DNA of 61,390 nucleotides from Reclinomonas americana ATCC 50394 (GCA_048213135.1 PS015480.1:1-61390); one strand, 5' to 3'; positions 28,101-61,100 are shown, numbered from the stretch's first letter. Notes: generated from the sequence alone by a model not told the origin. Numbers and translations are program-made.

Positions 28101-31100
28101 CAACAGAGAGCTGCGGATAACTGAGGTGAAGGTAATCCGTAGCGAGGCCGTCGAGCTGCAGGCACACGTGATAGGAGCCAGCGGACAGCACGCCGTCGAT
28201 GCCAAGGGACACTGTGAGTTCCGTGCGCAGCGGATTCGTGGACGACGGTCCATACGCTCGAATGCTGACACCAGTGCAGGATACCGAGTTGGTGGTGAAC
28301 CACACAACATCAGTCGGATCGAGGAATTGTCCCTGTGTGTTGCGCATGTGCATGTACGGAAATGTGGGTGTGAAGATCAGCGCCGCGTGCGATCATTCAC
28401 AGTCACCAAGACGCACCGTGACGAGAACTGAGGCTGTAAAATCGGCAGCCGTAATGCTCGTCGGTTGTACACCGGAGATTGTGGCCACTCGCAGCTTTCT
28501 TGAACTCACACGGCTGCATGCACGCATGACACCATGTGAGTTGCACACACACACGCATACACACAGGGACAACATGGGCGTAACTGGATGGCACTGCCAC
28601 CGAAGCTTGAGCACACCACGTACTCTTGCGGTTGGATCGACGACAGCTGCAAGTAGTGCTCCGTCCAGCCACTCTCGGTCACTGCATTCGGCATCACATC
28701 GCCAGCAAACTGTCAACAGCCACACACAGCCACGTGCACGATGACGAAGGCGACGCACCGAAGATCGGAGAACTGGACACATTGTTCAGCACGGTGACAT
28801 GGGTGGATGACTGGCATGTCGACGGACACGTGTCGGATGTCGTCAAACACACGGGATCCGAGGCGAGCAAGCCGACACCTGCAATCGCACCAGGGCAATC
28901 AGCAACGGCTGCTGTCTCAGACAGTCAACACATGGCGCACACACCAATGACGGTGAGAATATCAGCCGAGGTCGATGTATTGCCGCGCGCAGAGATCGGG
29001 CGGAACGATCCCACCACTGCCGGGGTGGGTACAGAGGCGAACACGCACGCACGCACACACACACAAAAAAAGTGAGAAGATAACGGAGCCTAGACGACGT
29101 TGCTCTGTGGCAGACAAACCATCTTCAATAGTCACTGTACGAGCACATGCGATCGAAAAGCACAAGTGAGCTGATGGGGCTGGCAGACGACCGACAGCAT
29201 GGGAAAATGGTAACTGACGCACCGGGAGAGGCTGCAGTGGTGAACCAGAGAATGTCACCCCGTCGCGACGACACAGTGTCGACCGCACGGAAGTAATAGG
29301 TCTGTTGTGGCGTGAGCGACAGCAAAACAGCCGCGACAACCGTGTCGGATGAGCTGGCAGTTGAGGCTGGCAGTGCGGACACTTGCGTCGGAGGCGACAC
29401 TGTGCTGTCGAATGCACTGATGGACTGTGCAAGCTCGAAGATGTTGGCCGTCGCCGCGAGACCACCGGCATTGATAATGCCATTCAGTACAGCGCTCGTC
29501 GAAGTGACGCTGCTGGCGGCCACCGTGCGCACAGATGCACCTACAGCAAGCAACAGTGAGCATGGTGGACAGCCATTCGCCGCTGTGGTGGTGTACACAA
29601 TTACCGAGGGTGGAGAACGAGCTGAGCGACGACGTGTGGCTGCCAGTGATCGATCGGAAGTAGTACTGGGTGGACGACGACAGACCGCCGAGTGTGACGG
29701 ACACGGTGGTCGTTGTGGACCTCGTTGTAATCAAATGGGAAGACAAAGGGTTGGATGCCAGCAGCGCCACTTGTGGACGGGTGTGGCTGCCAGAGTCAGC
29801 GGAGCGCGACCTGGCAGACGTAGCGGCAACAGGAGACGCCGGCAGCGTCACACGTCGAATGGTGTGATTGCTCAAGTCTGCAAGCATTGTCTTTCATGAA
29901 TGAGATCACAAAACACGGAGAAAGGTAAGTAGCGTACCGCCAATCAGCAGCGATTGACTGGCACCACAGAACGCCACTCCCGACTGAGATTCATACACGC
30001 ACACAAACAGACAGGTGATGAGCAACCTTGCAAAAGAGAAACAGAAACGAGCAACGAGACGAACCGGTTGTGAAAATCGCGCGACACTACCGAGACCGTC
30101 GGTGCTTCCCGCGGAGCCAGAACTGCCTGCCACCAAAGACACGGCACCGGCGGCATCGATCAAGCGCACGGTGTTGCCAAACTGCACATCATAGAGACGC
30201 ACGTGTGCGTCAGGTGGTGAAATCTCCTCGCATGCCGTCAATCGCATCAAACCTCGGTGACATAGACTCCACCAGAGAGCACGTCCACGGCGACGGCAAG
30301 CGGCCGAACGAACCGTGCATACTGCCCGTCGGCGTTGGCAAACCCAGATGAACCGAGCTGGCCAGCGACCGTGGTGACGGCCAGCGTCTGCAGATCGATC
30401 TTTTGCACCACCTGCGAGTTGTTGCCGGCAACATACAGACACCGGCGTACAGAGTCGACGGCCACTGCTGTCGGCGAGCTGAAGCTGCTTCCACTGGCAA
30501 CGGTGCTGGTGGCACCAGCGGCAGTCGTCAACCTGAACACGCGGGTGACAGGAAGTGTGAGGATTGTAGACGACGAGATACAGGCTGGTGAACGCACCGG
30601 ATTCGTGAGTTGCCAGTGTCTGCCGTGTACACTTGGTGTGTCGTGGGATCGACGGCAATGCCACTTGGCGAGCTGAATTGAACTTGAGTGCTCGTCGCAC
30701 TATCCACAAGTCCGTTACTACCAGACCCGGCGTGAACCGTCACCAATCCCTGATTGATACGACGAATTGCATGATTGCCGGTCTGTGTCGTCGACACATT
30801 CCAACATGTGAGACGACGGCAGTACCGCGGAGCACAGAACGATATCATACGCACATCGGCAACATACACGATGCCCGTGATTGCATCCATGTCGACGTCG
30901 TGCGGGCTGCACCGTGGCACATTGATCAGTGGGATGAGAGAGTGAGAGAGTGAGAATAGACCATCTTCGCCCAAAAACATACCTATGGAACGTGGCTCCA
31001 CTGGTGGTGGCCCCATCGACGAATCCGGAGCTGCTGGGCGTGCCAGCAAACAGCGATACAGTGCCAGCCGTCGACATGGTGCGGATGACGTGGTTCCTGC

Positions 31101-58100: not shown

Positions 58101-61100
58101 ACAACAGCGCCGCTGGTGACTTTGCGAATGGAGTAGTTATCGGTCTGCATGAAAAATGAGAATAGCGCAGGCGTCGGTCGTGGGATGACGTACAACGCAC
58201 CTCTCCGACATATAGGTCGCCCGTGATTATGTTGATCGCGATGCCAGTAGGACTGCACACATGCGAGAGAGTGAACTGCACGTCGAGAGCACACACCACA
58301 CTTCACGTCGCACGACGCAACGTCCTGAAGCGCGCAGACGTCGAGGTGGCGTCGACAAAGCCTGCGGTGTTGACGGCACCTGCGAATACGGATACGGAAC
58401 CTCCGGATGTGATCTTTCGCACCACGTGATCGCTCCTAATCAAGGCTGTCAGCAACAACTTTGCCGTCAGTACACAGAGTGAGTGTGACGCACGTAGGAG
58501 CGTACGAATTGCCGGCTGCGTCCATTGTGATGCCCTACAAGTCGGATAAGCGCATGCTGAAGAATCACAATCACCGTATGCGCAACAACACGTGCATACC
58601 CAGCCACCACTGAATCCAGACGCGACAAGGGTTGTTATCGTCGGTGCCGTCACCGACAAATTTGCCGAGACGGTGGCCACGGCGAATGCGTTGACGGTGG
58701 TGGTGGAGCTGCCCCTTGGACTCAGTGAGCCATTGAGCGCAGCACTTCTGGCGGCGGTGCTTGACGCCGAATTGGTGGTGGCCAATGGCACTACAGTTGA
58801 CCGAGTGAGCTCGACTGTGAGTTGATGTGACGGGGACATATATGTGGATTGCATCGCAACGTAAAGTGGCGAACGACTGGACGCCACCCGTCACGCCGTT
58901 ACTGGCAGCCGCTCGGAAATAGTACGTGGTGCCGGGAAACAGTGACGACGCCGTAACAGTGATATTGGTGGTGGTTGACCCACTGACATTTGAAGGAGAG
59001 GCCACGAGCGGCGACAGCGGCAACTCGATGCGCCGGATAGTGTTCATGTCGTACTCTGCCAAAATCAACATCAGACTCAGAGCCTGCTAACAAGGCAGCA
59101 TTTCCAGCGAAGAGACCAGCGACAAGCAGAGCGGGTCTGCTTGGATCCCACGAGACGTCAGTCTAGATACATCGAAGAGCACACATGTGAATAACTGCAA
59201 GGGAGAACAGTCATCTACAATCCGACTCACGATTGCGCCAAAAGAAGAGTTGCTTCCGTAGCTATTGGTGGTTCCATAACTGCCAGCAGTGCCTGCAATC
59301 GTCGTTACAACACCGCCGCTGGTGACCTTGCGAACCGCATAGTATACAGCCTATTCCGTGTGTTGTTGACAATGTGAGAGAGCTGTGCAATGACGCAGAC
59401 CAGTTTGTCGTTCAATCGCACGCAACATCACCGACGTACAGCACGTTGGCCACGGGATCTATCGCCAGACCCCATGTGTGCCCGAAGAATGCGCCAGTCC
59501 CAGTGCCATCCACACATGTGCAAGTGCCAGCACTCCCCACAAATGTTGAAACGCCGTTGTTAGTTAAATTGATTTTGCGCACAGTACAGTTGTACAAGTC
59601 GCCAACATAGAGGACGGAGCGGCTCGAGTCCAGAGCGAGGCTACTTGGGCTATAAAAGCGTGCCGAACTGCCAGTGCCGTCACTGGTACCGTGACTCCCA
59701 GAGAGGCCGGCGACAATGGAGCTGGAGCCCGCATACGTAACGCGCCTGCAAATGTATCCGATCAGAACAGCCCTGGAAAGGGAGTGTGTCTAGCGCACGC
59801 TGTGCATACGAACCAAATAACATGATATCCATAGTCTGCCACGTAAACGCAGCCGGCGGTGCTGTCGACCGCCACATCCATCGGTGTAGCAGGAGAGAGA
59901 CCGCTGGTCGCACTGGCGAGTGTAGAAACAATATTTTGCGAGATCTTGCGGATAGCGCTATTCGAAGACTGCAGGACATCTTTGGTGCGGAATTACATCG
60001 GGTGGGGGAGGCAAGAGGGACCCACCTCCGACACATACAGATCACCGGTCGACATGTCAATATCGACGCCGTTTGGTCTGCATCAGGAGGACACTGCGGG
60101 TGAGCCAACAACAAGGTGGCAGTCATTGCGTAAACTCACGAGCTGAATAGAGCAGCTCCACAATCTCCATCGACGAAGCCCGGGGAGTCCGGTCGACCGG
60201 CGACAGTGGTCACCGCACCAGTGCGTGTCACCATGCGAATAATATGGCTCCTATGCAACACGTAAGGGGAGAGAGTTGGGTCTTGGGAGCATGGGCGAGA
60301 CTTGTTTCGCAACTGAGTTGCAATGTAATAGTTTCCGCTGGCGTCCACAGTTCCGCGCTGCAAGCAACATGTGTGAGAGAGCAATGCAGCGAGGAAAGGG
60401 AGCATCAAGGGAGCATACGTTCGGGTTGGTGAAGCGAGCGGTCGAGCCGATGCCATCGACCCAGCCAGACACATTGGCTGCTCCCGCCAGCAACGACACC
60501 GCTGGCAACATAATGAACGAGGCCAGCACAGAGGTGCCACCCGCATTGATTGATCCGCTCAACAACGCTGATGCGCTGTCAATTTGCGATGATCCCACCG
60601 TTGTCACCGTGACAGCTGGAAGGCGCGCGATTGTGAAACCAACAGCACAATCGCGGGCGCACACACATATTTTTCACTCACCGAGTGTGGTAAATTTACG
60701 AGACGAGAACTTGTTGGTGGTGCCGGCAGAAGGAGACACTGCAATCCGTGAAAAAGAAAAGTGAGAAGAAACGAGCTGAATTCTTTTAGCAGACACGCAA
60801 GACAATCCATCACCGTCTGCATCCGCGTCGGCGTCTGCAGGCACCACCTGCAACGACAAGACATCCTCGGCTACCACTACGGCGTTGCGAGTGGCTCGCA
60901 CGCGCACATCCAGCGGCGCGTGCGACACCGGCCGGGAGAGCCACAATTGCTTGCGATTGGCAATCCGCACAGAAGCAGCGTCGGCTCCGCCAGTCACCGA
61001 CCACGTGAGGTCGGTGGAGTCGCCTTCAAGCTTGTCGGTGCTGTCGACATGCAACGTGCCCAACGGCACAGACGGGCTCCACTTGCCGTCTTGGTAACTC

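Follow-up and report, generated by a model that had tools for sequence, protein, structure and literature searches.

A giant intron-rich gene of Reclinomonas americana predicted to encode tandem FN3-like sandwiches with nested NHL propellers

The 61,390-nucleotide (nt) stretch of DNA from Reclinomonas americana ATCC 50394 that was analyzed here (GCA_048213135.1 PS015480.1:1-61390; hereafter the window) contains one giant gene on its minus strand. Spliced alignments place this gene from position 61390, where it runs off the window edge with its reading frame still open at the 5' side, to approximately 29224, past which its 3' end is uncertain. An initial annotation had assigned an array of FN3/Ig-like domains, each with an NHL propeller inserted in it, to 29605..60615, and the module array does lie there, but the gene extends further upstream to 61390 and its last free domain ends only at ~29224. 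As defined by the spliced alignments, the intron table and the control scores, the partial gene (29224-61390) comprises about 15 nested FN3/NHL modules and four free FN3-like domains, and by our estimate the encoded protein would exceed ~7000 amino acids (aa) within the window (15 modules of ~435 aa each plus the four free domains). The explanation that we consider probable for this locus is that the protein is a tandem series of FN3-like sandwiches, 15 of which accommodate an NHL propeller within the loop that joins strands C and C'.

No long open reading frame (ORF) runs across the region of the giant gene. A three-frame translation of the minus strand yields pieces of NHL blades and FN3-like domains in which the frame switches every 15-170 codons, and direct reading of the DNA shows that at several of these switches GT...AG intervals of 55-91 nt restore the frame. 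The gene was modeled with our own protein-to-DNA spliced aligner (BLOSUM62, GT..AG introns, three phases) using pieces from the window as seeds, and the spliced product of one module, M8, was the query for the remaining region, with 15 modules resolved. Module M8 (44642-46519) consists of 10 exons and nine internal introns and has a spliced length of 435 aa, made up of the N-terminal part of an FN3-like domain (the N-half), six NHL blades of ~56 aa each, and the remainder of the FN3-like domain (the C-half). It coincides exactly with the spliced module given at 46519..44642 by the initial annotation, with an intron at 46590-46520 preceding it and a donor site at 44641 following it, so that there is one intron in each of the adjoining linkers. 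There are about 10 short GT..AG introns per 1.9-kb repeat and 135 distinct predicted introns overall (35-499 nt, median 70 nt), although a few predictions within M1, M2, and M14 are doubtful. The introns recur at nine positions inside the module and at one in the linker. Eight of the internal sites (query positions 138, 153, 190, 208, 268, 375, 414, and 429) each have an intron whose position and phase are common to 11-15 of the 16 aligned segments, and a further shared site lies in the linker, where the intron is of phase 1 in every case. Neither of the two FN3/propeller junctions is marked by an intron.

A lack of any long ORF, in a region that also contains runs of N and microsatellites, would be expected as well of a pseudogene or of a repeat assembly artefact in which changes of frame are misread as introns, and the aligner disallows stop codons, so that the stop-free models are partly so by construction. 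What makes such an origin extremely improbable is that each frame change corresponds to an interval of 53-193 nt with GT..AG ends, whose codon position and phase recur in 11-15 segments, and that the aligner scores of the three modules compared are approximately 10-fold above those of the controls (1270-1456 for the real strand versus ~150 for the opposite strand and 68-120 for shuffled DNA). Moreover, the spliced modules are all 412-443 aa in length and are 31-67% identical to each other. The features of a nuclear gene are present, namely short GT..AG introns, conserved intron phase and no continuous ORF of the prokaryotic style, and the gene is of the eukaryotic type with spliceosomal-type introns.

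The 15 filled modules include 12 that are complete (M1-M10, M13, and M14) and three (M11, M11b, and M12) that are interrupted by runs of N within the giant gene (34118-34329, 34700-35345, and 38678-39222), which conceal parts of them. The four empty, uninterrupted FN3-like domains are in the exon 37485-36076 (three) and at 29538-29224 (one), and hence the gene contains both empty and filled forms, as the initial annotation had stated. Likewise, the pattern that it had read in the DNA, an N-half followed by about 330 aa of NHL sequence and then by a C-half, becomes apparent only once the introns are removed. In all complete modules strands A-B-C of the FN3 fold (the N-half) come first, followed by 323-341 aa of NHL sequence in six blades and then by strands C'-E-F-G (the C-half), and the FN3-like domain is broken after the motif 'FE..S...FG' and before 'SPS.VSG', which corresponds to the C-C' loop.

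At the 5' side of the array, on the same strand as all of the exons that follow, lies an open exon of 236 codons (60683-61390), the first part of which is (TC)n low complexity and the remainder of which is possibly Ig/cadherin-like and ends in ...KFTTL. It has no Pfam match and the Ig/cadherin-like leads from the atlas are weak (scores up to 0.89). The part at 60683-61100 terminates in an F-G-like motif ('...FSFSRIAV...KFTTL'), and a (TC)n run occupies the window edge at 61340-61390. In the spliced alignments a module typically opens with one exon that encodes the N-half and the head of blade 1 and closes with another that encodes the tail of blade 6 and the C-half. The respective exons are at 60419-60613 and 58862-59053 in M1, 56215-56439 and 54478-54675 in M3, 54104-54331 and 52359-52550 in M4, 52069-52293 and 50427-50618 in M5, 50126-50350 and 48498-48689 in M6, 48205-48429 and 46592-46789 in M7, 44339-44569 and 42770-42961 in M9, 42460-42693 and 40712-40909 in M10, and 33268-33495 and 31611-31799 in M13. 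The closing exons of M6 and M7 are supported by the Pfam scan as well, and that of M5 matches positions 51-93 of the 93 in Pur_ac_phosph_N with an expect value (E) of 5.5e-6. M9 also has an exon of 173 codons (43350-43868) that encodes approximately three NHL blades without introns, and the open frame around it (43161-43937) matches the Pfam NHL family PF01436 with 54.7 bits against a cutoff of 20.

The remaining modules are less regular. M2 is divergent, with an N-half exon at 58600-58788, a poorly aligned blade 1, and a partial C-half exon at 57064-57186, downstream of which is a low-complexity region. The opening exon of M11 is at 40437-40637, and the masked run 38678-39222 covers the M11 C-half along with the M11b N-half. 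There follows an intron-free frame of 470 codons (P0001; 36076-37485, with the exon proper at ~37452-36079), which begins with the tail of blade 6 and the C-half of M11b, continues with three complete FN3-like domains of the free type (~37260-36331), and ends with the N-half and blade-1 head of M12. The closing exon of M12 is at 33577-33768, the module being broken by the masked runs 34700-35345 and 34118-34329, and the interval that it occupies is ~850 nt longer than a normal module. M14 opens at 31306-31539, and its C-half (29600-29875) is a less certain model in which an extra predicted intron (29810-29721) separates the exons 29875-29813 and 29719-29600. The last free domain (29224-29538) matches Pur_ac_phosph_N (positions 55-93, E 0.0031) and a custom profile described below (positions 5-99, 56.7 bits). 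Two segments, 58436-58600 in M2 (blade 1) and 30506-30782 in M14 (blades 3-4), are degenerate or mis-modeled, with 'introns' of 40 nt and 35 nt and poor alignment, and these blades may have decayed or the splice model may be wrong at those sites. Two predicted introns on the minus strand, at 41604-41772 (169 nt) and 56442-56940 (499 nt), are unusually long and contain (GT)n/(GA)n microsatellites and low-complexity sequence rich in S, L and P.

The free domains within P0001 match three Pfam families above their cutoffs, with 54 bits for PhoD_N (against 30), 40.5 for Pur_ac_phosph_N (against 30) and 33.3 for fn3 (against 25). The halves in the filled modules fare differently, as 4 of the 5 C-halves tested are seen by Pfam, all below the cutoff of 30 (21.9-27.3 bits) and only from profile positions 42-56 to 93 of 93, and none of the 5 N-halves tested is detected. 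The Pfam output is thus a set of NHL repeats with sub-threshold half-matches, in agreement with the prediction of the initial annotation that linear domain annotation would miss the layout. We built a custom hidden Markov model (HMM) of 100 positions from 120 segments, chosen at random from 134 bacterial free domains of tandem-FN3 proteins, with two NHL-bearing proteins excluded. It matches the free domains of P0001 at residues 76-178, 179-282, and 285-372, and it matches all 12 of the complete spliced modules in two pieces. The first ~57 residues of each module correspond to HMM positions 4 to ~59, with independent E-values (i-E) of 9e-9 to 6e-3, and the last ~50 residues to positions 45-99 (i-E 1e-14 to 5e-6), while each spliced module contains six blade units in between. 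When the insert of 323-341 aa is removed and the two halves are joined in silico, a single end-to-end match to the free-domain profile (HMM 4-99 or close) is obtained for 11 of the 12 modules with 27.5-69.2 bits, M5 being the exception where the boundary was mis-set. The free domains of the gene itself have scores of 28-57 bits against this profile. The converse is seen in P0142, a tandem free-FN3 protein, in which the two ends of an HMM of the whole module match back to back (positions 2-56 and then 393-434); this module HMM was built on nine of the 12 spliced modules and did not include the divergent M1, M2, and M14. In a separate attempt to find a sign of an extracellular protein, a conserved disulfide pair was considered and rejected, as the Cys positions are not conserved across the modules.

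Relatives of the array were sought with P0001, which retrieved only bacterial-type tandem FN3-like proteins, and by homologue searches in the length ranges 824-2350, 30-955 and 3045-5000 aa, where the matches in the latter two ranges are dominated by multi-propeller NHL proteins. Within these ranges (up to 5000 aa) neither an annotated full-length protein nor a eukaryotic relative was found. A profile of the junction between N-half and blade, A1, matches 16514 of 1.84 billion representative proteins at E <= 0.001, and among the 150 matches listed, which are ordered mostly by summed blade matches, the junction is present in P0151 only. The module HMM identified full nested modules in three of 498 fetched proteins, P0151 (1739 aa), P0426 (4235 aa), and P0435 (4166 aa), each with at least three full modules, all of which are unnamed and come from metagenome-derived collections. 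They are probably bacterial, judging from their uninterrupted, intron-free ORFs, and a leader with a ...FEDRLLLA... motif is typical of Planctomycetes. The layout of P0151 is a leader, an N-half, six blades, a C-half, a free FN3 domain, a second module, three free FN3 domains, and a third module, and hence it resembles the giant gene both in the order of N-half, six NHL blades and C-half, which P0426 and P0435 share, and in the mixture of filled and empty FN3-like domains. In contrast to the abutting modules of the window, those of the three proteins are spaced by free FN3 domains or by Ig domains of the DUF1573/ASH type. Three other large, secreted-type bacterial proteins (P0047, P0119, and P0130) also combine NHL with PhoD_N-like FN3 families, but in a linear order of a terminal propeller (N-terminal in P0047 and P0119) followed by complete sandwiches with no insertion. 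A search of genome_contigs with P0151 gave 22 loci, none of which contains a nested module.

Formally, two registers are open to the reading of any tandem array, and in this array a C-half mostly abuts the next N-half, so that each C-half might instead pair with the N-half of the following module, placing the propellers between circularly permuted sandwiches. MAFFT did place the starts of C-half exons on N-half columns. The register is fixed, however, by the exon 37485-36076, in which three complete domains lie between a C-half and the next N-half, and at the end of the array the last C-half is followed by the complete free domain. Similarly, the first N-half of P0151 follows the leader with no C-half before it and the modules of this protein are flanked by complete domains, yet that N-half is modeled with a predicted local distance difference test (pLDDT) score of 85-92. 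The linker from strand G to the next strand A (HMM position 99 to the next position 4) does not exceed the length usual for FN3 domains in tandem, and the fact that the two chain ends of the FN3 fold are at opposite poles of the sandwich also counts against a shifted register. We therefore judge this arrangement to be very unlikely, and the pairing of a C-half with the next N-half, which the initial annotation had named as the contrary outcome, is contradicted both by the exon 37485-36076 and by the first N-half of P0151.

The conformation of the nested module was modeled with AlphaFold2 using residues 42-576 of P0151, that is, module 1 and the next free domain of this bacterial-type homologue. 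The alignment (A5) had 15 rows, consisting of one module each of P0426 and P0435 and 12 N-junction exons of the window, and it left out the C-junction exons, the blade exons, and the N-junction exon of M2. Two larger alignments, A3 (48 rows) and A4 (26 rows), were dropped because MAFFT had misplaced exon fragments. The model has a mean pLDDT of 87.1 and a predicted template modeling (TM) score of 0.73. Strands A, B, and C (residues 6-13, 19-27, and 33-40; pLDDT 85-92) are followed by a propeller of 24 strands, comprising one at 48-54, five sets of four, and three at 348-353, 359-363, and 368-373. By this strand count the first and the last three strands of the propeller would form one blade, so that the ends of the insert are adjacent. 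The chain leaves the propeller two residues ahead of strand C', and the strands of the C-half (376-383, 389-396, 403-412, 415-418, and 422-425) reproduce the pattern C', E, F, G of the adjacent free FN3 domain. In the corresponding prediction for P0001, made with 20 bacterial rows, the three free domains are confident (pLDDT mostly 80-94), in contrast to the N-half that is cut off from its partner (residues 387-470), which has a pLDDT below 50 and no strand of three residues or longer, and to the orphan C-half, in which only the F-G hairpin forms and the C' and E region has a pLDDT of 35-59. This disorder is what the FN3 topology predicts if strand E needs B and strand C' needs C.

The N-half (56 aa) and C-half (67 aa) of M8 were also co-folded as separate chains, giving an interaction score from predicted aligned errors (ipSAE) of 0.48 (0.49, 0.48, and 0.48 in individual runs), compared with 0.01 for the best of 3 controls, with a partner pLDDT of at least 68 and at least 91% agreement in contacts between runs. 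The mark used is reached by 51 of 78 solved complexes and by 2 of 108 mismatched pairs, and passes at or below 0.60 are rated weak. That the halves are predicted to associate as separate chains, even at this level, and that N-halves and C-halves are alike enough between modules for cross-pairing would be compatible with swapping in trans, whereby halves of different modules or molecules complement each other to give a cross-linked fiber or polymer. No evidence for oligomerization was obtained, however, and since the cis partner is tethered through a propeller that, to judge by the strand count, has its two ends side by side, pairing in cis is strongly favored, leaving little probability for the trans arrangement. 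A further possibility is that the halves are relics that form no sandwich and serve as flexible linkers or pack on the propeller, the protein then being propeller beads on a string. The invisibility of the N-halves to Pfam, the sub-cutoff scores of the C-halves and the weak co-fold result would be in keeping with this, but both halves are conserved across 12 modules and match the free-domain profile, the scores of the joined halves equal or exceed those of the free domains in the gene, and the AlphaFold2 model of the homologue has long, confident strands in both halves. We thus consider it unlikely that the halves are relics.

Several points weigh against the nested arrangement and should be kept in mind. 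The splice model is a prediction guided by homology, with weak stretches in M1, M2, and M14, and masked sequence hides parts of three modules. The confident model is that of a bacterial-type homologue and not of the window's own protein, and the comparison between folded halves (P0151) and unfolded orphans (P0001) is one between different proteins and different alignments. The packing of A-B-C onto C'-E-F-G was judged from pLDDT values, strand patterns, and the weak co-fold score, not from observed contacts, and Pfam on its own misses the N-halves and scores the C-halves below cutoff. Finally, no signal peptide, anchor, or ligand was identified, and thus localization and function are indirect deductions. 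Nevertheless, we regard the nested topology, in which the propeller is inserted in an FN3-like domain, as well supported and quite likely correct, given the sequence tiling, the boundary logic and register, the AlphaFold2 model of the bacterial homologue, and the unfolded orphan halves, together with the weak co-fold result, and the central claim of the initial annotation is upheld to this extent. The halves would presumably pack as a single sandwich in this very protein as well.

We propose that the backbone of the giant protein is a tandem series of FN3-like beta-sandwiches of the bacterial 'PhoD_N-like' type, and that 15 of the 19 sandwiches seen have a complete NHL propeller of six blades nested between their strands C and C'. 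In these, the chain would run through strands A, B, and C, pass out to the propeller, and return to C', E, F, and G of the same sandwich. To judge by the strand count, the first strand of the propeller would complete the sixth blade beside the last strand ('Velcro' closure), which places the entry and exit of the propeller side by side. Because the ends of the propeller are side by side and the linkers between sandwiches are of normal length, the sandwiches would form a continuous chain with the propellers as side branches, and the two-residue exit in the model of the homologue suggests a propeller that is fixed rather than tethered. In the FN3 topology the C-C' loop is at the C-terminal pole, beside the junction with the next sandwich, and hence a propeller of ~36 kDa at this loop would have to project sideways, with successive propellers fanning out around the axis. 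In its topology, this favors the picture given by the initial annotation, in which the protein would be a continuous rod with lateral propellers, resembling a bottle-brush. Should the nesting be correct, the sandwiches alone would make up the mechanical chain and the propellers would be fixed side branches, which changes how the length, stiffness, and valency of the protein are to be modeled. Such domain-in-domain nesting is invisible to linear annotation, where the Pfam picture is one of beads on a string.

The closest parallels to this architecture are the 'split domains' of RTX adhesins such as AhLap of Aeromonas hydrophila and FrhA of Vibrio cholerae (PMC12077191; PMC10865825). A split domain is an Ig-like domain from which a ligand-binding domain with adjacent termini buds and is projected off axis (PMC12077191). 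The RTX adhesins share with the giant protein an Ig-like sandwich of a long extender array that is interrupted by a globular domain with adjacent N and C termini, as well as the occurrence of split and unsplit sandwiches within one protein. They differ in that the inserts are carbohydrate-binding modules, RTX beta-rolls, or vWFA domains rather than NHL propellers, in that the chain exits after the first strand in the solved AhLap structure and after the third strand (the C-C' loop) in the window domains, in that they have one to three inserts near the distal tip and not ~15 in tandem, and in that they are bacterial, type-1-secreted proteins with RTX repeats whereas the window gene is intron-rich and of the eukaryotic type. 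With no RTX or BIg Pfam family in the scanned ORFs and exons of the window, and with spliceosomal-type introns, the giant protein resembles the RTX split-domain adhesins in principle but is not a member of that group. If correct, it would extend the split-domain principle in three respects, with the C-C' loop of an FN3-like domain as another host position, an NHL propeller as another insert, and 15 copies in tandem in a gene of the eukaryotic type.

A comparable nesting is known from the integrin beta subunit, as in the structure of alphaVbeta3, where the Ig-like hybrid domain hosts the beta-I domain. There too the nested domain is globular and binds ligands, and it sits within a loop of an Ig-like sandwich, although there is a single insertion, the insert is of the Rossmann type, and the family is unrelated. 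The ROS1/Sevenless ectodomain, structures of which (9ozi and 9pvp) are among the Foldseek matches of P0001, is also a large eukaryotic ectodomain of FN3 sandwiches and six-bladed propellers, with nine FN3 domains and three propellers (PMC11743138). Its propellers are of the YWTD and not the NHL type and are described as having FN3 domains on their flanks, and neither 'inserted' nor 'insertion' is used in that paper (PMC11743138). Solved NHL propellers with the same six-bladed fold include the teneurin-like 9ifo, the lumenal 'quenching protein' structures 7djj and 7djl, NHLRC2 (6g7w), TRIM71, and the filamin-NHL structure of Lin41 (6fpt), but by its title the Ig-like domain of Lin41 is a separate neighbor, and the propeller in PMC12153261 is N-terminal and not inserted. 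No account of an FN3-like domain with an NHL propeller nested in it was found in the open-access literature searched. The search for structural precedents that the initial annotation had suggested gave propellers and tandem FN3 domains only. Foldseek with the P0151 module model has NHL propellers as its top matches (E 1e-26 to 1e-18, target-normalized TM scores up to 0.9), and with P0001 it finds tandem FN3 structures such as 1fnf (E 1.4e-10), and by their titles none of the 50 matches listed for the module model is an FN3 domain with an inserted propeller.

The conserved positions and phases of the introns, together with the lack of introns at the FN3/propeller junctions, indicate that the whole nested unit was duplicated with its introns and was not assembled by exon shuffling. 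Growth of the array by tandem duplication of a unit that was already nested and intron-bearing would be the best explanation, and the gene may represent a clean example of such amplification. The modules of the window are 35-44% identical to module 1 of P0151 over 356-448 aa, compared with 31-67% among their own paralogues. This similarity, comparable to that among most of the paralogues, hints at gene transfer between a bacterium and a eukaryote in either direction, and the bacterial-type look-alikes make a transfer from bacterium to eukaryote testable. Since the identity to P0151 is like that to most paralogues and only bacterial-type relatives were found, one could go further and suppose that a eukaryote acquired the nested FN3/NHL module from a bacterium, added nine introns, and amplified it to at least 15 abutting copies. 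The product would then be a previously undescribed kind of eukaryotic surface fiber with a continuous FN3 shaft and a propeller fixed rigidly on every sandwich, and the resulting helical bottle-brush would present 15 binding faces and could attach with high avidity. We offer this full scenario as a speculative one that is rather unlikely to hold in all of its parts. More generally, the protein is presumably extracellular, and by analogy with the split-domain adhesins, and given the secreted-type bacterial relatives, its function would most likely be multivalent binding or adhesion via the propeller faces, a proposal that we consider to have about an even chance of being right.

Elsewhere in the window, there are additional runs of N at 1820-2582 and five short runs of 20-26 N, and no tRNA or Rfam matches were found in the window. 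The ORFs at 22.6-29.2 kb have no Pfam match except for a lectin-like fragment below threshold. This is an open frame at 24487-24894, downstream of the giant gene and on the same strand, with a match to the L-type (legume) lectin family (30.4 bits versus a cutoff of 78.3, E 4.5e-7), and it could be a further exon of the giant gene or a separate gene. Beside the giant gene there are also five long, uninterrupted ankyrin-repeat ORFs (557-856 aa), apparently without introns, at 6271-8241, 10097-12304, 13141-15711, and 17274-19109 on the plus strand and at 20448-22118 on the minus strand, the last of which matches Ank_2 with 128 bits, and together they look like a paralogous cluster.

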